This document shows positions 8,026 through 43,471 of a stretch of 64,000 nucleotides of DNA, one piece after another; position 1 is the stretch's first letter; every line of letters starts with the position of its first letter. Both the position numbers and the translations under genes were made by a program. The notes beneath the pieces were generated by a model that did not search any database, was not told the origin of the DNA, and saw only the letters and a program-made list of their open reading frames with translations. Source of the stretch: Candidatus Thalassarchaeum sp. (GTDB lineage: Archaea > Thermoplasmatota > Poseidoniia > Poseidoniales > Thalassarchaeaceae); the NCBI GenBank assembly GCA_022449345.1, contig JAKURL010000001.1:14211-78210 (forward strand). The letters run 5' to 3'.

Positions 8026-8132
8026 ATCAATGAAGACAGAAGAGTGTAAAGTAAAAGTGAAAGTGAATTATTGAACTCTTCTTTGACTCATCCATTGTTT
8101 TCAAATACCGAGCCATGGTCGCCGTGCTACTC

Positions 8133-8210
8133 GCTCGTGTAGTGTAGTTCGGTCCATCATGACGGACTCTCGATCCGTCGACCCGGGTTCAAATCCCGGC
8201 ACGAGCACCA
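8133..8210 (+). tRNA. tRNA-Glu(CTC)
   Basis: Acceptor GCTCGTG/CACGAGC, anticodon arm ACGGA-CTCTCGA-TCCGT, GGTTCAAATCC T-arm, encoded CCA. Confidence 0.96.
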
Positions 8211-33296: not shown

Positions 33297-34247
33297 TTAT
33301 CGACGATTTGTCCACGGCATAATAATGCTCTTTGCGACGTGCCACGCAACATCTGGATTTTCTCTTAATCGGCGCATACTATACTCGTACCATCGGCCTC
33401 CATAGGGGATGTATACACGGGTTCGATGGCCTTGGGCAGACAATTTCCTTCGAATATTACCTCTGACTCCGAGTAGCATTTGAAACTCATAACCTGGACC
33501 TTTGCCCTTCCTTGCTTGGCCGGCATTTGACCTAGGATCTTCAATTCCTGGGCCCATTCCTCTTTCAGCCAAAGAAGTAAGTGAATAATTGATTACCGGG
33601 ATGTCATGAGTAGCGATTGCCGTGTACGATCCAGCATCGAGTAATTCGTCAACAGTTTGGTTCGTCGCTGCTACGATTTCGTGATATCCTGTATGAGCAA
33701 TGTCCTCAGGTTCGAGGTAGATCCCTTTGCAAATTCTAACATCCGAATTTCCACCAAGTTTAGACGAAAGGTGAGCGATATCATCACTAGTTCTGAACAA
33801 TCTAGATTGAAGTACGGTGCCTATGTTTCTATGTCCCCTTTCATGCATCTCAGTTACGATGTCAATAGTGGACTGAGTCACTCGGTTATCCTCCATATCG
33901 AGTCTGACGAATATGTCGTTTTTTGCAGCTATACGAGTGATATGCTCAATGTTTTCAATTGCCTTTTCTTCGTCAATTAGTAGACCAAATGCGGTTGGTT
34001 TTAGAGAGATATTTGCATCCATGCCTTCGGCAACAATCGCATCTAAGGCTCTATGATATTCATTAACGAAAAATTCGGCCTCGGCTAAACTGGTTATTTC
34101 TTCCCCTAAAACATCCAAAGTGAAACATGCACCTTGTGATTTCATGGCGCGCATAACCTTAATCGCACTATCTAAATCTGGGCCTGCGACATACCTCTTT
34201 GCAACCCAATGAACAACGAATTTCGGGGTGATGGGCATCATCATCAT
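33297..34247 (-). CDS. Monofunctional proline dehydrogenase
   Basis: RYVAG, TLDVLGE, ISLKPT, RLDMED, VRICKGIY, IATHD, EFQMLLGV and RVYIPYG..WYEYSMRRL.E motifs. Confidence 0.92.
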   Translation of the reverse strand: MMMMPITPKFVVHWVAKRYVAGPDLDSAIKVMRAMKSQGACFTLDVLGEEITSLAEAEFFVNEYHRALDAIVAEGMDANISLKPTAFGLLIDEEKAIENIEHITRIAAKNDIFVRLDMEDNRVTQSTIDIVTEMHERGHRNIGTVLQSRLFRTSDDIAHLSSKLGGNSDVRICKGIYLEPEDIAHTGYHEIVAATNQTVDELLDAGSYTAIATHDIPVINYSLTSLAERGMGPGIEDPRSNAGQARKGKGPGYEFQMLLGVRGNIRRKLSAQGHRTRVYIPYGGRWYEYSMRRLRENPDVAWHVAKSIIMPWTNRR

Positions 34248-34308
34248 GATGAGGCGGCCGGGCACACCCATATCGCAAGCCGTGTAGCGGGAGCACTTTC
34301 ACGCTTGC

Positions 34309-35241
34309 TCAAGGAATAATCTCCCTACCCCGAAGAACATCTACATCGAGATAAGATAGTTCTTCGATGATTGCATTGCGCTGCCAACCTTTGAATGATT
34401 TGCGATCCAAGTGAGCAAAAATGATTCCTCCAGGGAATGCTATCCGAGTTTTTTTCACCGCTTCGCGCAAACTGTGGCGCCAAGGCCCAGATGGTGATTC
34501 TTGATTTTCGCCATCGAAGACTAGAGCATAATTTGCTAGAATGTGTCCAAAGGGCAGGCCACTACGAATAGCGATATCGGAATGACGTGGTGCATAATGC
34601 CCTCCACCGAATCCAATCATGACATCTCCTTGACCGGCCCATTCGCCTTCTGGGTCATTATCTGAAAGTCCCAGAACTCTAGAAATTACCCTTGCCCAAA
34701 GCTCCGAAGCATCCTTGCGAACCCACTCGGATTCCTTTGATCCAATCTCTAGGTAAAGCGTCGGCTTTGTCAGTACAGGACCATGATGAGTAGTCTCCAA
34801 ACTAACATCGAATTCCTCAGCTAATGTGGAGTCAGCGGTCTCTTCTCGAAGGGCAGAATATATTGCGGAGAATCTCGGAGAGGGAGGGACTGCAAGGCCT
34901 TTTTCACCGCCGGCAAATCCAACCTCTCCGTGAGGGACTTCTCCCGGCACTCCAATTGCATGAACGGTAAGCGAAGGAATTCCGCTCTTTGCAGCATGGC
35001 GAGAAAGAACTAGAACTTCGTCGACAGATTCTCCAATCTCCTCTTCATGAATTATATCAATACCATCAGCGTGGATGTGTAACTTTTCGATTAGCAATAG
35101 ATGAACAGGTCGAACTGAGTGGCTCTTTACAAGTCCATGATCGAATTGTTCGGACTTCGACCATCCTCCTAGTTCGACTACCGCCTCATAGAGATTTACT
35201 GAGGCGTTGTCGGCCTTTGAGGCGAGCAGAAGAGTCACCAT
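34309..35241 (-). CDS. dtdA: Archaeal D-aminoacyl-tRNA deacylase (DTD2 / GEK1 type)
   Basis: LSRHAAKSG.PSLTVH, LETTHHGP, EIGS and GFGGGHYAP motifs. Start moved to ATG 35241. Confidence 0.88.
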   Translation of the reverse strand: MVTLLLASKADNASVNLYEAVVELGGWSKSEQFDHGLVKSHSVRPVHLLLIEKLHIHADGIDIIHEEEIGESVDEVLVLSRHAAKSGIPSLTVHAIGVPGEVPHGEVGFAGGEKGLAVPPSPRFSAIYSALREETADSTLAEEFDVSLETTHHGPVLTKPTLYLEIGSKESEWVRKDASELWARVISRVLGLSDNDPEGEWAGQGDVMIGFGGGHYAPRHSDIAIRSGLPFGHILANYALVFDGENQESPSGPWRHSLREAVKKTRIAFPGGIIFAHLDRKSFKGWQRNAIIEELSYLDVDVLRGREIIP

Positions 35242-35345
35242 GCAGCCTGCTAGGTACCTGAAGACTTCAACCCATCCGAGATTGAATCGAATTCCTCGGG
35301 CCATTAGCACCACAGGTTCAAACACAAGTAGCAGCGGGTCAAGAC

Positions 35346-36245
35346 GTGGAAAGAACCGTTCAGTTCACCCCCACTCGAGTGGATGATTGTGGGGGACACT
35401 ATGTCATCATTGGAAGTTTAGGTGAACTTGCAAAGCTCAACCAAGAGGGAAAGGTGCTTGGTGAGACGGCTATTCCACTCGCTTCTACTATACCTTGCTC
35501 AACCGCTATGGAAGATTCTTGGATTGGTGTCTGGGTAGAAGCAGAAATGAGATTAGCAAGAATGGCCAGTCTAAATTTAGCGGACGAATGGAAAGACGGA
35601 GCCTCTAAGAGAGACCTTAGAACCTCGTTAAACCCAATGTCATTACATCCTAAAAATTCCCGCTGGTCACACGCTCTAGATGCAGAACCGACGTGTGTTA
35701 GGTGCATTGATGATGGATTCTGTTTTGTCTTGCGCGGACGAGGTATTTACCGGATGGATTCACAGGCAAATGAGATTTGGAGATCTTCACTTCCCAGTGT
35801 ATTGGATGGGAAGTTAAGGGGACTGGAGACTGCTATTTCAATTTCACAATACAAGGATTCACTGAGCATTTGGTATGACAATGGATTGATCGTAGACATT
35901 ACCTCAGATACCGGATTGGAGATTGACCGAAGGAGTCTGAAAATACATGAAAAAGTGGAAAGAGTGTTTCATTCAGAAACTTCACATTTGCTCGCTCTAG
36001 CAGGAGGGGGATTTCTAATCTCGGATGGAGAGCATATTCTTGACTCCAAAAGCACACCTGGTCCATTGTCTGCGGCTAGAGAAAATGACGGGGTTTGGGA
36101 ATTTACCGGCTGGCGATTCGATGGCCGATTGAGTAATGGAAGCCTTGAGATCTCTGCAAGAGACCAACTAGGCATTGGCTTTGTTTCCGACAAAGTTCTG
36201 ACCAATGATGGGACACTAAGCGATTTTGCATTCACTCATTCTTGA
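35346..36245 (+). CDS. Hypothetical protein (beta-rich, possibly propeller-like)
   Basis: Long ORF filling the gap; no family motif recognised. Confidence 0.6.
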   Translation: MERTVQFTPTRVDDCGGHYVIIGSLGELAKLNQEGKVLGETAIPLASTIPCSTAMEDSWIGVWVEAEMRLARMASLNLADEWKDGASKRDLRTSLNPMSLHPKNSRWSHALDAEPTCVRCIDDGFCFVLRGRGIYRMDSQANEIWRSSLPSVLDGKLRGLETAISISQYKDSLSIWYDNGLIVDITSDTGLEIDRRSLKIHEKVERVFHSETSHLLALAGGGFLISDGEHILDSKSTPGPLSAARENDGVWEFTGWRFDGRLSNGSLEISARDQLGIGFVSDKVLTNDGTLSDFAFTHS

Positions 36246-36399
36246 CGGTGTGGCCACACTTTCCACAGGTTTTGCGGTCCGAGTGTAGACCTAGGAATAC
36301 TCCTGGGCCGCAGGTAGGGCAGGTTTCTGCCCTTACCAACTCATTACCTTCGATTGTGTATTTCGACCATTTCGCATTTGCGTTCGGGCTATCGGACAT
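36232..36399 (-). CDS. rps27ae: 30S ribosomal protein S27ae
   Basis: Not in the ORF track. 55 aa: MSDSPNANAKWSKYTIEGNELVRAETCPTCGPGVFLGLHSDRKTCGKCGHTVKNE. TGATG-coupled to rps24e. Confidence 0.95.
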   Translation of the reverse strand: MSDSPNANAKWSKYTIEGNELVRAETCPTCGPGVFLGLHSDRKTCGKCGHTVKNE

Positions 36400-36785
36400 C
36401 ACTCATCGCCTCCCTCTTCTGATTCAGCTTCGGATTCCTCTTCTTCTTCTGGAGCGGCTTCCTCAGCAACTGGTTCTGGAGCTGCAGGCTTCTCAACCTC
36501 GCCAGGTGAATGAATAGCCTTGTGGCGGTTGTGGACAAATTCTGGCTCAACTGTTGCGGCCTCGGCGTCGCCGTAGATTAGGGCAATACCAGTAGTCTGT
36601 GGTCTACCATATCGTGTGTTTACCTCTTTGACAAATGTGAGTTCTTTCTTGGAGCCTGGTTCGGCCTTTGCTGCAGCCGCGACCATATCAGAAAGAGTAG
36701 GTGTAGCCTCTTTGGAATGCTCCCAACGGAAACTCATCTCAACTCTGTTAAGCAATGGATTCTCTTTTCTTTCGATTATTTCCAT
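36399..36785 (-). CDS. rps24e: 30S ribosomal protein S24e with acidic tail
   Basis: MEIIERKENPLLNRVE, TPT, and TRYG...TTG.A.IY motifs. Confidence 0.95.
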   Translation of the reverse strand: MEIIERKENPLLNRVEMSFRWEHSKEATPTLSDMVAAAAKAEPGSKKELTFVKEVNTRYGRPQTTGIALIYGDAEAATVEPEFVHNRHKAIHSPGEVEKPAAPEPVAEEAAPEEEEESEAESEEGGDE

Positions 36786-36798
36786 TTCTAGTTCCTCC

Positions 36799-37014
36799 TT
36801 AACGGATATTCACTTTCAGAGCATAAGAACCTGGGTCGTTTATATTCAATCTCTGCGCAACTTCCGAGCGCTCAGGGTGCATGATAACTACGTAACCCGA
36901 CCAGTCGGTAGTGACTGGAGCGGATGGGCAATGAATGCATTGTGGAGGGTCGCTCTTCTTCTCAGGATCTGGAAGAATCCTATTACATTCACCACAAGCA
37001 AAGGACTTAGGCAT
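36799..37014 (-). CDS. spt4: Transcription elongation factor Spt4 (RpoE'')
   Basis: ACGEC...CIHC, DWSGYVVI..PE.SEVA..L.I..PG.YALKV. Confidence 0.93.
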   Translation of the reverse strand: MPKSFACGECNRILPDPEKKSDPPQCIHCPSAPVTTDWSGYVVIMHPERSEVAQRLNINDPGSYALKVNIR

Positions 37015-37016
37015 AC

Positions 37017-37565
37017 TTAGTCACCTCTAGTTAGCCAATCGTGAGCACCTAGGCCGGCCATCTTGCAATTCAAACCAATCTTGCTTGAACGTGGGTCGTT
37101 TTGGTTGATGGCCTTGGATACGATTCGAGAACGGACATAGGATCCCTCCTCGATGTGCTTTCCGGTTTGTGAGCCCTCGATTCTACGGATACCCATGTTT
37201 ACTTGTACAGGCTCATCAAGAATCTGTGACTTGTGAAGCAGGGCTTCGATTGGACCAATTCGCACGAATGCGCCATATTCAGACACCTCAGAAACCGCAC
37301 CGTCAACAACCTCGTTTGCCTCCATGGTAAAGTGAAGGGCCTTGAAGCGGACTCTCTGATAAATTGCCCCATCTCCGTGGATTATCTTTCCACGACCTAC
37401 AGTTTCGTGGTCATAGGTTAGCAGTGTGTAGTTTTCGTCTTCGTCGAATCGACCCTCAAAAGCTGCATGGGCCAACTCGTCGATGTGGTCCTCCAACTTG
37501 CGCCCCTTGCGGATATATTCCGCTGGGATTCTGATGGTATCCTCCATTGTTACTAGGCTGTACAT
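37017..37565 (-). CDS. rpoE: RNA polymerase subunit E' (Rpo7)
   Basis: GKIIHGDGAIY, S1 domain YGAFVRIGPIEALLHKSQI, KIGLNCKMAGLG. GGAGG SD 7 nt before ATG. Confidence 0.95.
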   Translation of the reverse strand: MYSLVTMEDTIRIPAEYIRKGRKLEDHIDELAHAAFEGRFDEDENYTLLTYDHETVGRGKIIHGDGAIYQRVRFKALHFTMEANEVVDGAVSEVSEYGAFVRIGPIEALLHKSQILDEPVQVNMGIRRIEGSQTGKHIEEGSYVRSRIVSKAINQNDPRSSKIGLNCKMAGLGAHDWLTRGD

Positions 37566-37577
37566 TCGGTTTCCTCC

Positions 37578-37672
37578 AATCGCCGGACCGCTCCGAGGTC
37601 AGTCAGAGGAAAGGCAGGTTAACCCTCCCGTCCCTCATCGGCTGTGCCTCCAGAGGAGAGGTCCGTGCGATT
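37578..37672 (-). ncRNA. Structured leader/sRNA: 95-nt hairpin containing a C/D-type kink-turn
   Basis: Nested pairings read by hand: AATCGC/GCGATT, CGGACC/GGTCCG, CTCC/GGAG, GAGG/CCTC, CAG/CTG, then GATGAGGGA/TTCCTCTGA with tandem G.A pairs. Confidence 0.65.
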
Positions 37673-37822
37673 CGCCGACCTGCGACGCTCCTATAAGCAC
37701 AACGGATGAGTCAATGCGACAGAATTACTCTCGGCGATGTAGAAAGTATGCTCAGACCGTAGGTCTGAATGAGAGTATACCCCTAACCTTCAAGTGGCTC
37801 GGAAAGCGCAAGTTCGACCCTG

Positions 37823-40800
37823 ATGAGTATGCTGAGTCAGAGTTTCAGTGCTTCTGAGAAGCGCGGAGCATTACTGGCGATAGTTTGCTTGTTGCTACTT
37901 TCTCTGTCTCCATTAATGCTTTCAAACTCGAATTCGAACCGTAATTTGAGCGATTCAGAGGGGGAAATCGCATTTACGGGCGTTGTTGAGCCTTGGGTGG
38001 ATGGTGGACAACCCTGGCCTCAACCAGGAAGAATTGGCCAAAGGACCTCCCAAGGCCCAGCTCACTCACCTGATGGAGGAGCGGGGGCTGGTGCGCCGAG
38101 TAATGCAAGTGAATTGGCATCTGTAGTAGACCCTGTTGTAAATTGGGTATACGGAACTTATTCGATAGGTAGCGATGCACTAGGCACTCCGGTAGCAGAT
38201 TTCAGTACCCAGATAGTAACCGATGATGCGGCTAGTGGGAGGTGTGGCGAGGATTCGTTATTCCTCGTACTTGTTCAAACCGAGGTCGTTGGAGGGAATG
38301 ACCACAGCGTTGTCAAAATAATCGAAGGAGAAGATGCAGATCTCGCTTGGGAGGTTGATTTGGGGGGTACGGAGATTGTCAAAGCCTCTCCCGTTATTGT
38401 CGACCTTGATGATGATGGAATGCAGGAGATCATTATTGTTTACGATGCTGGTAGCACGTTGTATGTAGATGCTTACTCTCCACGACTACACTGTTCGGTA
38501 ACTGGCTGGTCACCCGGGGGGTCGAAAAGTGCAGAATTGCTCTGGACCTACAGTGATGATGGGCTGCGAATTAGCAGTACAAATGGCCCATACACTTCGT
38601 CCATTTGGGGAGGCCACAGACCAACAACACAACCATTGCTTGCTGACTTAGATCTTGATGGTGATGCTGAATTAGTACTTGCAGCTATTGATGATAACGA
38701 GAATCCAGTGGTAGTGGCATTGCCTTTGACCGCAAACGGAGTTCCGACTCCAATTTGGCAATCGACCTTAGAGGATGGAACACACCCCTCCGATCCATCA
38801 TTCGCTCAAGTTGACGACCAAACCGCCTACGTTCTCTTGACAACAACCCAATCCTCTAGTGGGGCAATGTGGGTTTGGAAATTAGATTCTGTATCTGGAG
38901 ACCAACTATGGTCTCTGAGTCTATCCAATTTAGATGGCGATTCTGATGTCCCCCACATCCGATTGCCAGGTCCTGTTATCGCTAACTTAGATTCAGACGC
39001 CACTCCTGAAATGATAATTACAATCCCGACTGACGCTGATGGTTCGAATACCGTGGATGGTGCGGAATTCAGAGGTTTGGAGATTGATGATGGAAGTGAG
39101 ATTTGGTCATTTGAGGCGGTAAATGGATACGCGGATGCCCCCCCTCTTGCAATAGATACCGATGAAGATGGCGAAATCGATCGGGTCTGTTGGGTATCAT
39201 GGTATCAAGAGACTACTGCAAGACACGGACATGCTGGTTGTCATGATGTTTCAGGAAACAGCCCCCAACTCGATTGGTATAACGACTTAGAACAATCCAG
39301 TGGAGTGCCTAACGACGAGATTGCTGTCGCACAACCAATTTGGATGGACATCGATGGTAGCGGCACGCCTGAAGTATTGGTGGCGTATGGCAGAACTCTT
39401 TGGGCATGGGATGGAGATACTGGAACTCAAGCAGCAATTAACGACAATTGGAACGATGAGGTTGAAGTTGATCACCGCACTTGGTCCTCTCCAGCTCTAG
39501 CCGATGTCGATGGAGATGCTACCTTAGACATCGTGCTTGCTGACACCATAATTTCCACCGCGATCGCTGACGTTAGACCCTTGCTTGATGGACGTGCTAT
39601 TGAATTCAATCCAAGCGCACCAGACCCTGATGAAGAAGTGACCATTACAGCTTTCTTTGAAAATGCGGGAACCACCGATGTAGACAGAGCAGTAGATGCA
39701 GTACTCTATGCCGACGGTACAGAGATTGCTCGCCACCGTGCAAACACCCTAGAACCTACAGATCCAACCGGTTCAGCAGGATTCGAATCTTTTTCCGTAG
39801 ATTGGTCTGGTGGGCTCGGTGAATATTCCTTTGAATTGGTTCTAGACCCTTACCAAAACGTAACTCAATCACGCTACGACAACGATGCTCAATCAACCAC
39901 TTTGACGATAGTTCCACCTTACAACGCTACATTTGAGATGCCTACAAATCCGGTCAGAGTGAATCCCGGAGACTCCACCATCGGCCAGCCAACTGTTCGC
40001 TCGACAGGTCGTCTTGCTGGTGTTTGGAGTTTATCAGTAGATGCTAGCAATTTGCCTTCTGGATGGACTTGGAGCGACGAGACACCAGAAGGAATTACAT
40101 CCATTGAGATCGGTACTGATGCAACCTGGACCCCTTCACTGAGAATTCATGCGCCGACCGACGCTGAAGGTTCAGACGCAGGATACCTCACACTTACCCT
40201 TACTCTGGACGATAACGAGAATGTTAGCGTCAGCGGAGTGTTGCCGATTGAAGCAAATCGGACTAGAGGACTCTCGATTAGAGGACCCTCCGGTACAACT
40301 GCGAGCACTGGCTACGGCCTAATTGGAGAATCTGCGAAGGCATGGCTGATTGTGGAGAACCTAGGCAATGCTGATGAAAACTCAATCTCAATGTACTGGG
40401 ATAGTACATCATGGGATTCGGCTGAAAATAGTCTTACTTTGTATGATGAAAATGGAAATGAGATTCCTGCTTTGACGCTGGATTCGGGAGAGCAGAAAGC
40501 CATCTCCGCTAGACTTGGGGTGCCCTCTGATGCTTCGCTAGGCGAAAGTGTATCTACGCCTCTCACAATGTGTGTTGGTAGTGGCGAAGAAGAAGACTGT
40601 CAGACTGTACAATTACAATTCATCGCTACTGGAGTTGTGACCGAAACTGACCATCAACGTAGCATGCCGGAGAATACCCTGCAATGGGATGTTATCGCTG
40701 ACTTGCCGGCATCTACTGGAGTGTTGGATTGGAAGATTTCTGATGCCGGAATGGCAATTGAAGATTGGATTTGGTCCGGCTCGGGGTCTGTGGCAGTAAA

Positions 40801-43471
40801 TGGCGATGATATCACAATACAGGGAATACCAGGATCTAGAGTCACTGGAATTCTGTCTGCTGAACTTCCAGTTGACGCCCCTCCTGCATTCCATTCCTTC
40901 TCCGACTCTAGTAGTTTAGGATCTGATTATTCTATACGTCTATCTGTTGAGGTATTGCAGATTTACAGGTCTTCACTAACTTTGGTGTCACCGACCGAAT
41001 CTCCACATCTGGTTGAAGTTGAGGAATCTATATCGGCCACGGTTCGATTATACAATCCGGGCAATGGGGAAGATACCTATGTCATGTCCCATTCAATAAT
41101 CCTCGACGATAATCTAACCGAAGACCCAGGCATACAAGTTACCTTCAGTAACTCCAGAGTCACCCTCGGTGCCGGTAGTTTGAGAACCCTACCCGTTGAG
41201 ATAATCCTACCGGATACCACACCAGCAAGAACCGCAGTGAATATTGAAATCTTCATGACTTCCGAAGGAGATTCTACAATTTCAGACTCAGTAATCCTAA
41301 CTCTAGAAGCAAGGCAAGATCATCGTTGGGATATTGTACTCTATTCACCCTTAGGGCCGGTTGAAGGCAACACCTTTGCAGTCAATCCGGGTGACTCATT
41401 TATTGTAGGAATCAATGCCACAAATACTGGTAATTTAGATGATGATATTTCGGTTTCCGGAATAGGTGTTCTTAGCCACCAAGGTTCGGATACGGAAACT
41501 GGTTGGGGTATCTTCGGAGATAATGTGTCGGCGATTCAGGTTAATGATTCCACCATACTGGAATTGGTTGTAGAAGTGCCCTTGGGTGCATGGAATGGAA
41601 CTACCTACCAAGTAAATGGATCAATAGTTGCCTTTGATGTCGAAGTTTACACATTCACATTCACAATCGAAGTTGCGCATGTTGCTGGTTGGAATGCTAT
41701 AGCCTCTGATGCTGATTTAGAGATTGACCCCTCTGGCTCAACCGTATCTCTTACAGTCGTACAAGAAGGAAATTCTCCAACTAGACCATACGTCAGTGTC
41801 CAAGTCGACGGTGAAATAGGTTGGGTAGTAGAAACACCAGACGAATTGCCAATCCTAGACCCCGGAGGCACAGCAACACTCGATTTGCAAATCACCCCAC
41901 CATCTACAGCAAGACATGGAAGGACTGTTGAGCTACACGTCAGATTGAGAGAAGGAGATGGTAGTAGCGAGGCGACGATTACACTACCACTAAGGGTTGC
42001 CGTTATCCATGAGTTCAGCCTTCAAGGAACAGGAAATTGGATTGTATCAGACGATGGAGGTTATCCACATGCAGAATTACAAAATTTAGGTAACGCTCCG
42101 ACAACAATTTCTCTTGAAGTTCTGAGTCTCCCTCAAGGTTGGAATGTTTCAGGTCCGAATCAAGTAGTAATTGCAGTAGGTGAAGTAACCGGCGTTCCAT
42201 TAGAGGTTATTCCATCCCCAGATTGGGACGGTGCATCTAGAACAATCAGAATATTAGCTCAAGATGAAGCAGGTAATCAAAGAGAAATATCTCTTGACAC
42301 TCAATACGAAGATCACTCATGGGCATCTTCTCCAATTATCGTCTCAATGGAAGGAGATAGCGTTCTACTCGAAATACATGGAACCTCACCTGCTTCTTCG
42401 GTGGTCGATGATATTCAGTCGAGTTTGGAATGGGATTTGCAAGGAGGCTGGGTTTGGCAGGCAAGCGGAACATCACCCGGTAGCCAATTGACAATAGATT
42501 CAGATTCAGTTCTCCCATACACAGCCTATGTAATCGAACCAGCGCTTAGGTACGCAACCTGCTCAATAACAGGAACCTCGGTTTCCGTCCAAGCAGAATG
42601 TACGGTAGGAAATGGCACCAACCCCTTCAGTTATACTGTGATTCTAATCGGCGATCAAGGTATGATGTTAGACTCATATGAGGGGGATTTGGAAGCAAAT
42701 ACAACCTCTGGCCAAATTAACCTAAGCGCCTCAGCTTGGAATCCTGAACCAGGTATGAGAACTCTAATTATTCGACTCTTGGATGAAAGGGGGGTATTGG
42801 TGGCATCTGACGAAACCTCATTTGAAATTCGAAGAACTGATTGGAATGTTGGTTTAGTCGGTTTAGAATTGGAGGGAGAGGGAGCAACTCAGAAAATTAA
42901 GGTATTAACAAAGAGAGAATACCATCACCTCTTGACCGATGCAGATTGTAGCATTTCGGTGATTGCCGGCTCGCATAGCGCGACCCATTCGATTGATTTC
43001 TCTGGAATATATCCGCCTGAACCCAAGTTGGATAGGCCATCACTTGAAGATGCAGCAGATGGGGCAGAGATGGTAGTCACCATTCAATGTGCATTCCCAT
43101 GGGATCAAGATTCAGATGCCAGCGATAATGAGGCCAGATTGATTCTATCAGGTGGTTCAGTAAACACCGAAGATGGCTTTGAATGGGGCACAGCTACCGG
43201 TTCCGCTGTTCTCGTTATTGCACTAGCATTAACCTTGACTTGGATTCTTTACAACCAACGTGAACGCAGGAAATTGTTGGATATGACCGAATCAGTCCTA
43301 AGCAAGAAAAAGCAGGAATCTGATTTGCCTCAATCAACACCTTCTTCTGAAATATCTCAGCCAACAAGTGAGTCGATTAGTAGCGAAGCTGCTGAGGAAT
43401 CTCCTGACATTGTAGAGAGAGAGTTGGACGACTTCGAGAACAGGTTGAAGCGTTTGACCGGTGACGACTGA
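37823..43471 (+). CDS. Large (1882 aa) surface protein: FG-GAP/PQQ-like propeller, CARDB, multiple NEW3/Ig-like domains, C-terminal TM
   Basis: Signal/TM at the N-terminus; DLDDDG, DLDLDG, DIDGSG and DVDGD blade motifs; repeated x-N-x-G-N-x-x-D modules; TM SAVLVIALALTLTWILY. Confidence 0.85.
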   Translation: MSMLSQSFSASEKRGALLAIVCLLLLSLSPLMLSNSNSNRNLSDSEGEIAFTGVVEPWVDGGQPWPQPGRIGQRTSQGPAHSPDGGAGAGAPSNASELASVVDPVVNWVYGTYSIGSDALGTPVADFSTQIVTDDAASGRCGEDSLFLVLVQTEVVGGNDHSVVKIIEGEDADLAWEVDLGGTEIVKASPVIVDLDDDGMQEIIIVYDAGSTLYVDAYSPRLHCSVTGWSPGGSKSAELLWTYSDDGLRISSTNGPYTSSIWGGHRPTTQPLLADLDLDGDAELVLAAIDDNENPVVVALPLTANGVPTPIWQSTLEDGTHPSDPSFAQVDDQTAYVLLTTTQSSSGAMWVWKLDSVSGDQLWSLSLSNLDGDSDVPHIRLPGPVIANLDSDATPEMIITIPTDADGSNTVDGAEFRGLEIDDGSEIWSFEAVNGYADAPPLAIDTDEDGEIDRVCWVSWYQETTARHGHAGCHDVSGNSPQLDWYNDLEQSSGVPNDEIAVAQPIWMDIDGSGTPEVLVAYGRTLWAWDGDTGTQAAINDNWNDEVEVDHRTWSSPALADVDGDATLDIVLADTIISTAIADVRPLLDGRAIEFNPSAPDPDEEVTITAFFENAGTTDVDRAVDAVLYADGTEIARHRANTLEPTDPTGSAGFESFSVDWSGGLGEYSFELVLDPYQNVTQSRYDNDAQSTTLTIVPPYNATFEMPTNPVRVNPGDSTIGQPTVRSTGRLAGVWSLSVDASNLPSGWTWSDETPEGITSIEIGTDATWTPSLRIHAPTDAEGSDAGYLTLTLTLDDNENVSVSGVLPIEANRTRGLSIRGPSGTTASTGYGLIGESAKAWLIVENLGNADENSISMYWDSTSWDSAENSLTLYDENGNEIPALTLDSGEQKAISARLGVPSDASLGESVSTPLTMCVGSGEEEDCQTVQLQFIATGVVTETDHQRSMPENTLQWDVIADLPASTGVLDWKISDAGMAIEDWIWSGSGSVAVNGDDITIQGIPGSRVTGILSAELPVDAPPAFHSFSDSSSLGSDYSIRLSVEVLQIYRSSLTLVSPTESPHLVEVEESISATVRLYNPGNGEDTYVMSHSIILDDNLTEDPGIQVTFSNSRVTLGAGSLRTLPVEIILPDTTPARTAVNIEIFMTSEGDSTISDSVILTLEARQDHRWDIVLYSPLGPVEGNTFAVNPGDSFIVGINATNTGNLDDDISVSGIGVLSHQGSDTETGWGIFGDNVSAIQVNDSTILELVVEVPLGAWNGTTYQVNGSIVAFDVEVYTFTFTIEVAHVAGWNAIASDADLEIDPSGSTVSLTVVQEGNSPTRPYVSVQVDGEIGWVVETPDELPILDPGGTATLDLQITPPSTARHGRTVELHVRLREGDGSSEATITLPLRVAVIHEFSLQGTGNWIVSDDGGYPHAELQNLGNAPTTISLEVLSLPQGWNVSGPNQVVIAVGEVTGVPLEVIPSPDWDGASRTIRILAQDEAGNQREISLDTQYEDHSWASSPIIVSMEGDSVLLEIHGTSPASSVVDDIQSSLEWDLQGGWVWQASGTSPGSQLTIDSDSVLPYTAYVIEPALRYATCSITGTSVSVQAECTVGNGTNPFSYTVILIGDQGMMLDSYEGDLEANTTSGQINLSASAWNPEPGMRTLIIRLLDERGVLVASDETSFEIRRTDWNVGLVGLELEGEGATQKIKVLTKREYHHLLTDADCSISVIAGSHSATHSIDFSGIYPPEPKLDRPSLEDAADGAEMVVTIQCAFPWDQDSDASDNEARLILSGGSVNTEDGFEWGTATGSAVLVIALALTLTWILYNQRERRKLLDMTESVLSKKKQESDLPQSTPSSEISQPTSESISSEAAEESPDIVERELDDFENRLKRLTGDD

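Follow-up and report, generated by a model that had tools for sequence, protein, structure and literature searches.

A conserved, previously undescribed folded leader of the RNA-polymerase/ribosomal-protein operon in Marine Group II archaea

What lies between the promoter and the first codon of the rpo7 operon of Marine Group II (MGII) archaea, and what might it do there? The window analysed here, a stretch of 64,000 nucleotides from Candidatus Thalassarchaeum sp. (assembly GCA_022449345.1), carries the operon rpo7-spt4-rps24e-rps27ae on its minus strand, and directly 5' of it a long, imperfect hairpin that extends over some 80-100 nt (37665-37584, minus strand) and occupies the space between the TATA box and the SD and ends 0-6 nt before the latter. 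Pfam assigns the products to S1 and SHS2_Rpb7-N (Rpo7), Spt4, Ribosomal_S24e and Ribosomal_S27 (S27a family), and the gene order is the same in every relative inspected. The cluster is widely conserved and, to our knowledge, no cis-regulatory RNA has been described for it. A first-pass annotation of the window had taken the hairpin for a structured 5' leader of this operon, in agreement with the fold, the position and the Pfam assignments reported here, and its placement of GATGA (37639-37635), CTGA (37606-37603), TTATA, the SD GGAGG and the ATG at 37565 on the minus strand is right throughout. The hairpin is a real, strongly conserved folded leader of an RNA-polymerase/ribosomal-protein operon and a previously undescribed element; the coordinates of its parts are collected in Table 1.

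Table 1. Parts of the rpo7 leader and neighbouring features in the window (positions are those of the window)
Feature	Position	Strand	Basis or remark
Promoter, CATCCGTTGTG-CTTATAG, BRE-like text and TATA box	37691..37708	-	Conservation among MGIIb loci
Promoter-proximal element GGTCGGCG	37673..37680	-	GGTCGSCG kept in all leaders
Covariance-model match, whole element	37571..37673	-	Model R1 126.1 bits, R2 117.2 bits; plus strand 27 bits
Outer stem P0 (doubtful), AAUCGC / GCGAUU	37672-37667 / 37583-37578	-	Helix 1, 74.7% paired, weakest helix in the family
P1, CGGACC / GGUCCG	37660..37665 / 37589-37584	-	MFE; covariation
P2, anti-SD-like CUCC (37658-37655), bulge UCUG, SD-like GAGG (37650-37647); partners GGAG (37594-37591) and CCUC (37598-37595)	37647..37658	-	MFE
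Invariant 5'-arm core GAGGCACAGCCGAUGAGGGACGGGA: GAGG, 8 nt, AUG (37638-37636), then A-N-GGACG-R-G-A	37626..37650	-	Conservation
P3, CAG-C-CG / UG-A-CUG	37639..37644 / 37605-37600	-	Site of the K-turn proposed in the first-pass annotation
P4/P5 apical hairpin, GAGGGA-C-GG-G-AGG, loop GUUAA, CCU-G-CC-U-UUCCUC	37606..37636	-	MFE
Pyrimidine-rich variable 3' arm, potential anti-SD strand	37584..37618	-	Low conservation; in-silico SD pairing
rpo7 translation start, SD GGAGG (37577-37573) and ATG (37565-37563)	37563..37577	-	Sequence; Rpo7 homologues start at MY...
Downstream operon	36232..37565	-	rpo7 37565-37017, spt4 37014-36799, rps24e 36785-36399, rps27ae 36402-36232

The promoter text CCGTTG[CT]GCTTATA is kept in nearly all MGIIb loci and occurs once in the window, where TTATA was checked on the sequence at 37696-37692 of the minus strand; the tRNA-Glu promoter at 8133 and the rpo7 promoter have GACTCATCC[AG]TTGT...TATA in common. 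The GGTCGSCG element is also found 8 nt 5' of the mature tRNA-Glu end, and it is therefore regarded as a general promoter element, outside the RNA structure. Spacing from the TATA box, taken alone, puts the predicted TSS at about 37668-37666, just downstream of this element, so that the 5' end of the hairpin would lie beside it, as the first-pass annotation had expected. A second conserved palindrome is located upstream of the leader. No second copies of the motif or the promoter were found within the window.

The MFE fold of the window leader reaches -56.9 kcal/mol (z = -3.9), a value matched by none of 200 dinucleotide shuffles, and a fold begun at the predicted TSS reaches -45 kcal/mol (z = -2.75). 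This fold is essentially the nested pairing that had been drawn by eye from the sequence, and the extended hairpin formed by P1 to P5 stands; the outermost stem of that drawing (P0) is doubtful because it is situated at or upstream of the likely TSS according to the TATA-to-start spacing, and is possibly untranscribed, and because no other helix pairs less well across the family. Variants of P0 in the window's clade are both compensated and uncompensated. The pairing of P2 can slip between two registers of CUCUCCUC.

The element is present in 96/96 distinct Poseidoniales leaders examined, both MGIIb and MGIIa, once per locus and upstream of rpo7 only; it occurs in every rpo7 locus retrieved from the 80 nearest species-level genomes and from 16 further contigs, down to 60% Rpo7 identity, with MGIIa covered by the P0064 cluster named Poseidoniaceae. 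The median folding z-score in the family is -2.7, with z < -2 in 31 of 42 leaders. Covariance models seeded from the window's clade gave one match per locus, in the leader only and far better on the operon strand, and no further copy turned up across the roughly 560 kb of loci that they covered; the cut-off for the alignments was set stricter to exclude reverse-strand matches at the same place (about 27-30 bits). Alignment with MAFFT followed by RNAalifold, applied to 42 or 24 diverse leaders, did not recover the structure because the 3' arm contains indels and register shifts. A metagenome scan for the core motif yielded 120 matches; 13 passed the model, all 13 directly upstream of rpo7, and the remaining 107 were set aside as chance matches in unrelated, mostly soil, contigs.

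Covariation was assessed on 45 sequences in alignments fitted to the model structure, many of the sequences being closely related: 88.5% of cells are paired, compared with 44-54% when the partners are slid, 25 pairs display double changes (8-14 when slid) and the score is 0.26 (0.05-0.08 when slid), values reached by 0/500 shuffles. Both conservation and covariation are thus present in the relatives, and the first-pass annotation had named their absence as grounds for refutation. P1 (helix 2) is 93.4% paired with double changes in 6/6 pairs, the variants being CGGACC/GGUCCG, CGGGA/UCCCG and GCCCGC/GCGGGC, and P4/P5 (helix 6) is 91.4% paired with double changes in 8/11 pairs, the apical stem and loop varying freely between lineages. 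For P2 (helix 3), covariation is uninformative, since the sequence is invariant. Within P3, pair 34-77 is C-G in 41/45 sequences, pair 35-76 is G-C in 30 and G-U in 9, and pairs 30-83 and 31-82 covary (GC 13, AU 12, UA 4).

The unusual trait of the leader is that its conservation is one-sided. Columns of the 5' arm carry 1.65 bits each on average, and 15 of them are invariant; in the 3' arm the mean is 1.05 bits, with 2 columns that never vary. The 5' arm contains the purine-rich, nearly invariant motif GAGG-N8/9-RUG-A-N-GGACG, and the 3' arm is pyrimidine-rich, drifts in sequence and pairs in shifting registers. UGA-N-GGAC is invariant in 42/42 non-redundant leaders. The spacer between GAGG and RUG is 8 nt long in 77 of 83 leaders and 9 nt in the other 6, the triplet is ATG in 64 and GTG in 19, and the base 5' of UG is a purine in every case. 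The invariant strand may be abbreviated as GAGG...UGANGGACG.

Does the leader belong to a known class of RNA? Box C/D sRNAs possess a terminal C box RUGAUGA, a D box CUGA, internal C'/D' boxes and guides within about 50-70 nt, and H/ACA sRNAs are recognised by a hairpin that holds a pseudouridylation pocket, bears a K-turn or K-loop at its apex and is followed on the 3' side by an ACA box. The window element has CCGAUGA instead of RUGAUGA, is about 100 nt long and fully self-paired, and its CUGA is replaced by CCGA in the nearest relatives; the sole Rfam C/D match is a chance hit to SNORD56 on the opposite strand (E = 6.4). An H/ACA sRNA was rejected as well, the stem being followed by GGAGGAAACC without an ACA box, a large internal pocket or an Rfam match. 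Judged from the sequence, the bulge pattern is wrong for a BHB splicing motif, the G-tracts that a G-quadruplex would need are unconserved (L081), and the U-tract of an intrinsic terminator is missing after the stem. The suggestion of a processed orphan sRNA is also unlikely, with no oligo-T terminator after the hairpin and the SD so close downstream. At the gathering threshold, Rfam 15 recognised three tRNAs only in the window, and a permissive search (E <= 10) of the element and its surroundings, in the window and one MGIIa relative, returned nothing credible; the statement of the first-pass annotation that this is not a described element thus agrees with the Rfam search it had proposed. A literature search for non-coding RNAs of MGII found nothing relevant. 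Two traits of r-leaders were found: the structure is located 5' of an operon with ribosomal-protein genes in all 96 leaders, and it contains covariation-supported pairs, as judged on the model-fitted alignment.

The first-pass annotation had also read P3 as a C/D-type K-turn bound by L7Ae, which would couple expression of the operon to free L7Ae. In a K-turn, a bulge, usually of 3 nt, precedes tandem G:A/A:G pairs (PMC6298567); the UTR elements known to respond to L7Ae are situated upstream of l7ae itself, and the autoregulatory element of the l7ae 5' UTR comprises a GAU bulge and tandem G:A pairs with the SD in or beside the stem (PMC5539422, PMC6298567). Tandem G.A/A.G pairs beside a 3-bp stem can indeed be drawn from GAUGA and C(U/C)GA for the window and the clade close to it, and the A. 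fulgidus l7ae UTR K-turn construct shares the text GCCGAUGA (PMC6298567). However, the sole possible drawing in the window has a bulge of 2 nt (CC, 37641-37640), and at this site the energy model favours C-G and G.U pairing together with an AU bulge. The geometry is possible in only 25/84 leaders, namely the shallow clade of the window, L064 and L077, and most lineages lack the 3'-strand GA. Among the 45 sequences, A1n is A in 12, G in 17, U in 13 and C in 1, and G1b is Watson-Crick or wobble paired in 39/45 (G-C 30, G-U 9). The first GA of the 5' strand is UG or GG in the L039, L084, L087, L090 and L092 groups. In L043 and L046 the GA lies within a continuous helix (UGCCG/CGGCA, GCCGA/UCGGC), and every base of the UGA is Watson-Crick paired in MGIIa. 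An alternative register, with a GAU bulge and the second GA as in l7ae UTRs, would destroy P4 in the window and elsewhere gives only weak, long-range chance arrangements. The K-turn, unconserved across the relatives, is probably not there, and the downstream gene is rpo7, not l7ae; coupling to L7Ae can hardly be maintained. This negative result matters: a K-turn drawn from one sequence found no backing once relatives were compared.

Several other readings of the conserved leader were weighed. Conservation of sequence on one strand would be expected of a DNA site, and the palindrome CCTCT-N5-AGAGG and the second conserved palindrome upstream would suit a DNA element within the first 50 bases of the transcript, either a binding site for a transcription factor or a downstream promoter element, the RNA fold being incidental. 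Yet P1, P3 and P5 show compensatory changes together with G-U intermediates, a sign of selection on RNA pairing, the conserved block of about 45 nt is much longer than a typical operator, and in the window, L081, L087 and L092 the palindrome is broken with RNA pairing kept via G.U; such a DNA-level signal is very improbable. A purely structural stabiliser at the 5' terminus, acting against 5'-to-3' exonucleases or 5'-end-dependent decay with neither ligand nor switching, has rather more in its favour and is nevertheless improbable. Stabiliser hairpins of this kind are known from bacterial mRNAs, e.g., the ompA and aprE leaders, and need no specific sequence; the rpo7 leader resembles them as a stable stem-loop a few nucleotides from the 5' end of a highly expressed mRNA, with the predicted TSS 0-3 nt from the base of P1, a long and stable hairpin in all lineages, an accessible SD and start, and a 3' arm that varies freely provided that pairing is kept. 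A stabiliser needs a stem only, however, and leaves unexplained the conserved bulges, the 15 invariant columns and the 25-nt motif kept on one strand in both MGIIa and MGIIb.

The motif itself looks like a translation start, and ribosomes might initiate there on the open hairpin during coupled transcription and translation, the masked upstream start or regulatory uORF, short and of unconserved sequence, then blocking, or coupling to, rpo7 initiation. All 83 of 83 leaders have the GAGG, spacer and start triplet described above, including the purine before UG; the upstream site resembles a copy of the real one (GGAGG..CCGAUG and GGAGG..CCGA(A)UG) in the leaders of the window, L025 and L081, and many of the frames overlap the rpo7 start. 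Their length, on the other hand, ranges from 4 to 151 codons in all three frames, with 16/83 in frame with rpo7, and the stop of the window frame (37605-37603) is lost in the nearest relatives. The second position of codon 2 varies (AGG, AAG, AUG, ACG) and third positions are invariant, which is a non-coding pattern; the start site is base-paired in the stable fold, and a start site does not explain the invariant CC and A-N-GGACG. A uORF is accordingly an unlikely explanation.

A resemblance to rRNA was considered as well. Scored against the rRNA operon of Natrialba magadii, a PSSM of the core gave 17.0 bits at 16S positions 692-708 (ACGGUGAGGGACGAAAG), with -2.7 as the next best value, a match equalled by 4/500 shuffles; the likeness is post hoc (p about 0.01), and the rRNA compared is that of N. 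magadii and not of MGII. In the Rfam consensus of archaeal SSU rRNA, the matched site falls on the 3' strand of helix 20, its GGAC paired with GUCC, and CGUYY occurs in the 3' arm of 39/96 leaders. Perhaps CCGRUGARGGACGRRAG and its partner imitate the h22-h20 junction strand and helix 20 of 16S rRNA, titrating a small-subunit protein when free rRNA is scarce; archaeal S15 leaders imitating the same junction are known (PMC7247131). Against such an rRNA-mimicking r-leader, a helix 20-like GGAC/GUYY (GUCC-like) helix is found in only 26/96 leaders, C37630 is bulged in the window, S15 is absent from the operon and no Rfam S15-leader model matches. Helix 20 is near uS15 at intersubunit bridge B4 (PMC9932298), and the literature on eS24/eS31 rRNA contacts offered no usable site information and nothing placing S24e or S27ae at helix 20. 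Mimicry seems doubtful on this evidence, and the sequence likeness of the 5' arm to the helix 20 strand is a lead, not a demonstration.

The reading that we prefer, tentatively, is that the leader is a cis-acting translational-control element working as a three-part switch, composed of a 5' recognition/decoy strand, a 3' anti-SD strand and the real SD. The RNA would start at, or within a few nucleotides of, the hairpin base, and its 5' arm (the anti-SD-like CUCUCCUC followed by GAGG-N8-RUG-A-N-GGACGRGA) would be the surface recognised by a trans-acting factor. We infer both the existence and identity of this factor and the direction of regulation. The most likely candidate would be one of the operon's own RNA-binding proteins, S24e, S27ae or Rpo7 through its S1 domain, much as in an autogenous ribosomal-protein leader; because the 5' arm looks like a translation start region, free 30S subunits may be proposed as an alternative. 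Normally, the variable pyrimidine-rich 3' arm would mask the 5' arm; with the latter occupied, the freed 3' arm would pair with the real SD and start, and translation would fall. In some lineages, the CUCUCC element itself may pair with the SD or start. The 5'-terminal hairpin would also shield the mRNA from 5'-end-dependent decay.

Folding calculations offer some guidance on this proposed switch. In the native ensemble of the window the start codon is unpaired with a probability of about 0.99 and the SD with 0.72; in many lineages, including the window's, the start is open and the SD mostly so (family median 0.59), and the hairpin alone therefore does not repress. Blocking the 5' arm in silico lowers the SD value in the window to 0.05, compared with 0.49 in a control with a shuffled 3' arm, and the effect is similar in the window's clade; the earlier suggestion that internal CCUC can pair with the SD is supported in this form, namely when the 5' arm is occupied. 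Across the family, the modelled switch is weak: the median falls from 0.585 to 0.33, compared with 0.415 with shuffled 3' arms, and the SD is unpaired below 0.3 in 15/42 leaders vs 7/42 controls. Among MFE folds of MGIIa, CUCUCC pairs with the SD in L119, and the 3' arm pairs with the start region in L140. The two ribosomal proteins encoded in the operon count in favour of r-leader-type control. Protein operators usually have conserved bases on both strands of an internal loop, whereas the rpo7 leader is conserved on one strand alone, which counts against the switch.

The leader can be compared with several known systems. Three-part SD-sequestration switches (anti-anti-SD/anti-SD/SD) are familiar from bacterial translational riboswitch platforms and the E. 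coli rpsO and thrS operators, and autogenous ribosomal-protein leaders are exemplified by the Methanococcus L1 operator. The rpo7 leader shares with the former a pyrimidine-rich strand that pairs with either an upstream purine-rich strand or the SD, and the conservation of the purine-rich strand; it differs in having no aptamer-like multi-stem junction or conserved pocket, in a computed SD occlusion that is clear in some lineages only, and in a trigger that is only proposed. With r-leaders, it has in common a conserved, covarying 5'-UTR structure beside the SD of a ribosomal-protein operon, a lineage-restricted distribution and, possibly, partial resemblance to an rRNA site. Unlike in those, the first two genes encode an RNA-polymerase stalk subunit and Spt4, conservation is one-sided, Rfam finds no match, 16S h20 is not a known S24e or S27ae site and the ligand is only proposed. 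The l7ae 5'-UTR K-turn hairpins (Daume et al. 2017, PMC5539422; Huang et al. 2019, PMC6298567) are likewise archaeal 5'-UTR hairpins beside the SD that contain GCCGAUGA; in the rpo7 leader, the 3'-strand GA is unconserved, the one clade in which a K-turn can be drawn has the 2-nt bulge, and the gene is another. Very few archaeal cis-regulatory RNAs are known or predicted, among them a handful of r-leaders, some of which mimic rRNA; Eckert & Weinberg (2020) list four candidates (L4, eL15 and two S15 motifs; PMC7247131).

The leader is a compact RNA suited to binding studies, and its covariance model can be used for annotating MGII genomes and for fixing Rpo7 calls that run into the leader by mistake. 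The element occurs across the order Poseidoniales, archaea that are uncultured and abundant in the surface ocean, and the strand that it keeps invariant is unusually long; should it be a regulator, it would be a joint control point for RNA-polymerase accessory subunits and ribosomal proteins. A more speculative extension of the proposed switch, to which we attach little probability, is that the leader senses the translation apparatus itself, its 5' arm uniting an anti-SD copy, a full decoy start (GAGG-N8-RUG) and a replica of the strand from 16S helix 20; binding of a free 30S subunit or an unassembled small-subunit protein to the 5' arm would then let the 3' arm close the SD. If so, synthesis of the Rpo7 stalk, Spt4 and two small-subunit proteins would be tied directly to spare ribosome capacity in archaea that rank among the most abundant of the ocean plankton, and the leader would represent a new class of archaeal cis-regulatory RNA joining transcription and ribosome production.

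All sequence features of the leader described in the first-pass annotation are found in place on the minus strand, within 37700-37563, and the downstream ORFs encode, as proposed, Rpo7/RpoE' (S1 and SHS2_Rpb7-N), Spt4, S24e and S27ae. Region 37680-37566 folds into a single extended imperfect hairpin (-56.9 kcal/mol, z = -3.9), whose stability is matched by none of 200 dinucleotide shuffles; the hairpin is thus real and more stable than expected by chance. The fold begun at the predicted TSS gives -45 kcal/mol (z = -2.75). Rfam 15 gave three tRNAs as its only matches in the window, and even at E <= 10 it revealed nothing credible at the hairpin. The TATA spacing, the sole guide here, would place the TSS at about 37668-37666, at the base of P1, the lowest of helices P1-P5; the hairpin would therefore be 5'-terminal, which agrees with the start site suggested earlier and makes the outermost stem of that drawing (AAUCGC/GCGAUU) doubtful.

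The Rpo7 protein places the source organism in the Marine Group II archaea, Thalassarchaeaceae/MGIIb. The comparison included 80 rpo7 loci (Rpo7 identity 81-99%) taken from species-representative genomes, 16 further contigs with Rpo7 proteins at 60-70% identity, one cluster of which is named Poseidoniaceae (MGIIa), and 13 leaders from a metagenome scan, making 96 distinct leader sequences in total. All loci share a conserved promoter, a leader of ~100 nt with the same type of extended hairpin, an SD and then rpo7-spt4-rps24e-rps27ae; the median z of the fold is -2.7, with z < -2 in 31 of 42 non-redundant leaders. Two covariance models, R1, seeded with the window's clade and its MFE structure, and R2, rebuilt on the 44 best forward matches of R1, gave exactly one match per locus, at the leader (in the window, 117-126 bits on the operon strand vs 27 on the opposite one), and found no second copy, whether elsewhere in the 64-kb window or among ~560 kb of flanking DNA. 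In public metagenomes, 120 stretches matched the core motif GAGGY-N4/5-CC-N-R-TGA-N-GGACG-R, of which 13 passed the model, all 13 directly upstream of rpo7, and 107 were chance matches on unrelated contigs. Within the sample examined, the element is specific to the rpo7 operon.

The 45 distinct leaders aligned with the model include many related sequences, and their alignment is fitted to the structure; standard pairs occupy 88.5% of its cells, vs 44-54% in controls with the 3' partners shifted 1-3 columns; changes on both sides occur in 25 of 36 pairs (8-14 in the slid controls), and the covariation score is 0.26 (0.05-0.08). None of 500 shuffles attained these values. The signal comes from P1, where CGGACC/GGUCCG is replaced by CGGGA/UCCCG or GCCCGC/GCGGGC, from P3 and from the apical P4/P5, while P2 is invariant and hence uninformative. 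The outermost stem of the earlier drawing is the weakest, with 74.7% paired.

The proposed C/D-type K-turn and L7Ae control of the operon are not supported. L7Ae-responsive UTR hairpins with a GAU bulge and tandem G:A are known upstream of l7ae (PMC6298567, PMC5539422). The window allows a single drawing of a K-turn, with a bulge of 2 nt, and its MFE places the same bases in C-G and G.U pairs and leaves an AU bulge; CUGA becomes CCGA in the nearest relatives, where G-C thus replaces G.U. When searched for systematically, the proposed geometry was found in 25 of 84 leaders, confined to the window's shallow clade and two other leaders, L064 and L077. Among the 45 aligned leaders, the adenine that a K-turn requires on the 3' strand is present in 12 and replaced by G in 17 and by U in 13, and the putative sheared G is paired as G-C in 30 and as G-U in 9. 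The 'first GA' is UG or GG in several lineages, leaders L043 and L046 contain GA inside a continuous Watson-Crick helix, and in MGIIa the entire GGUGAAG is Watson-Crick paired with CUUCAUY. Bulge, pairing and base variation thus indicate that the family as such lacks the K-turn and with it the L7Ae link, and this reading has next to no probability.

Conservation is concentrated in the purine-rich 5' arm (1.65 vs 1.05 bits per column; 15 invariant columns vs 2 in the 3' arm). The string CC-[G/U]-R-UGA-N-GGAC-G-R-G-A is present in 42 non-redundant leaders of MGIIa and MGIIb, with GAGG 8-9 nt upstream and, in most lineages, CUCUCCUC before it. The pairing register of the pyrimidine-rich 3' arm with this strand differs between lineages; of 96 leaders, 26 pair GGAC with a GUCC-like segment and 36 pair it with UUC, leaving a C bulged. 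As the 5' strand is invariant while its complement drifts, the sequences suggest that it has some partner besides the 3' arm. The native ensemble leaves the start codon of rpo7 open and the SD mostly open (unpaired probability 0.72 in the window, family median 0.59). The suggested pairing of the 3' arm with the SD is borne out in the window, where in-silico blocking of the 5' arm lowers the SD value to 0.05 (control with the 3' arm shuffled, 0.49); closure is similar in the window's clade; the family-wide effect is modest (median 0.33 vs 0.415 with a shuffled 3' arm; values < 0.3 in 15 of 42 leaders vs 7 of 42 controls). In two MGIIa leaders such pairing is already part of the MFE: L119 joins conserved CUCUCC to the SD, and L140 joins the 3' arm to the start region. 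One further reading of the invariant strand is as a set of SD-like and anti-SD-like modules, which the unchanging 3' end of 16S rRNA would keep constant.

The best explanation, a tentative one, is a cis-acting translational-control leader working as a three-part switch, in which a putative trans-acting factor would recognise the invariant 5' strand. A masked start site upstream of rpo7, or a uORF, is unlikely: all 83 leaders contain GAGG, 8 nt (77) or 9 nt (6) and ATG (64) or GTG (19), a layout similar to the real rpo7 start region in the window and in leaders L025 and L081, but the reading frame opened there is not conserved: its length ranges from 4 to 151 codons, all three frames occur, and the window's uORF stop is missing in its nearest relatives. 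With the second position of codon 2 variable and third positions fixed as well, a conserved leader peptide is ruled out. A purely structural 5' stabiliser is somewhat less probable still. Slightly below it in probability comes a specific mimic of 16S helix 20. The core PSSM, scanned against a complete rRNA operon of another archaeon (Natrialba magadii pNMAG01), gave one outstanding match, 16S 692-708 (ACGGUGAGGGACGAAAG), at 17.0 bits, the runner-up scoring -2.7 and 4 of 500 shuffles doing as well; the archaeal SSU consensus of Rfam assigns this segment to the junction strand and to helix 20, whose 3' strand it forms (GGAC/GUCC), and archaeal S15 leaders imitating the same junction exist (PMC7247131). 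However, the resemblance was noticed post hoc, the helix forms in about a quarter of leaders, and the S15 gene is not part of the rpo7 operon. A DNA-level signal is very improbable.

The tRNA-Glu (8133) and rpo7 promoters have in common GACTCATCC[A/G]TTGT, a TATA box and, ~10 nt on, GGTCGCCG, which at the tRNA gene is followed after 8 nt by the mature 5' end of tRNA-Glu. Because it is also found there, GGTCGSCG is, judging by sequence, a general promoter-proximal element outside the RNA structure. The shared text looks like a strong-promoter architecture of the organism, and tRNA-Glu would be transcribed with next to no 5' leader. The divergent intergenic region contains a palindrome that may be an operator, bound by a dimeric transcription factor and acting on one or both divergent promoters, or else a small hairpin; about 60 MGIIb loci have the exact pattern CAGACCNNNGGTCTG at the corresponding place. 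MGIIa leaders L090, L119, L158 and L140 have one more hairpin, a small one (GACUUCGGUC, loop UUCG or ACGG), at the extreme 5' end before the main hairpin, ~10-25 nt after GGTCG; it is absent from MGIIb.

The 1882-aa ORF is syntenic in nearly all relatives, its homologues there show faint FG-GAP, CARDB and NPCBM_assoc matches, and it probably encodes a large protein of the cell surface or a secreted one. The 299-aa ORF has no Pfam match; in relatives the gene called at its place (about 310-325 aa) is on the other strand, so that either strand may be the coding one. Pro_dh adjoins the operon in MGIIa contigs too. Many database Rpo7 entries have 200-307 aa instead of the usual ~182 (e.g., P0008, P0009, P0016, P0017, P0024), and the upstream AUG/GUG of the leader (in the window within 37603-37638, minus strand) reads into rpo7 in the same frame, uninterrupted by a stop, in 16 of 83 leaders; gene callers have likely run these proteins into the non-coding leader.

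Coordinates of the rpo7 leader and neighbouring features in the window
Feature	Position	Strand	Remark
TTATA	37696-37692	minus	sequence
GATGA	37639-37635	minus	sequence
CTGA	37606-37603	minus	sequence
SD GGAGG	37577-37573	minus	sequence
ATG of rpo7	37565	minus	sequence
Shared promoter text, tRNA-Glu	8063-8132	plus	sequence comparison
Shared promoter text, rpo7	37673-37712	minus	sequence comparison
Perfect palindrome CAGACC-TAC-GGTCTG	37751-37769		minus-strand text TTCAGACCTACGGTCTGAG; ~55 nt upstream of rpo7 TATA
1882-aa ORF	37823-43471	plus	divergent from rpo7 operon; N-terminal hydrophobic segment
299-aa ORF	35346-36245	plus	convergent to operon end; overlaps rps27ae stop region
D-aminoacyl-tRNA deacylase, archaeal-type (PF04414), and proline dehydrogenase (PF01619)	33297-35325	minus	3' of operon

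The rpo7-spt4-S24e-S27ae operon has a genuine, order-wide structured leader that was previously undescribed and is best filed as an archaeal mRNA leader or r-leader-like motif; it is of interest, since such elements are rare in archaea and its invariant strand is unusually long.
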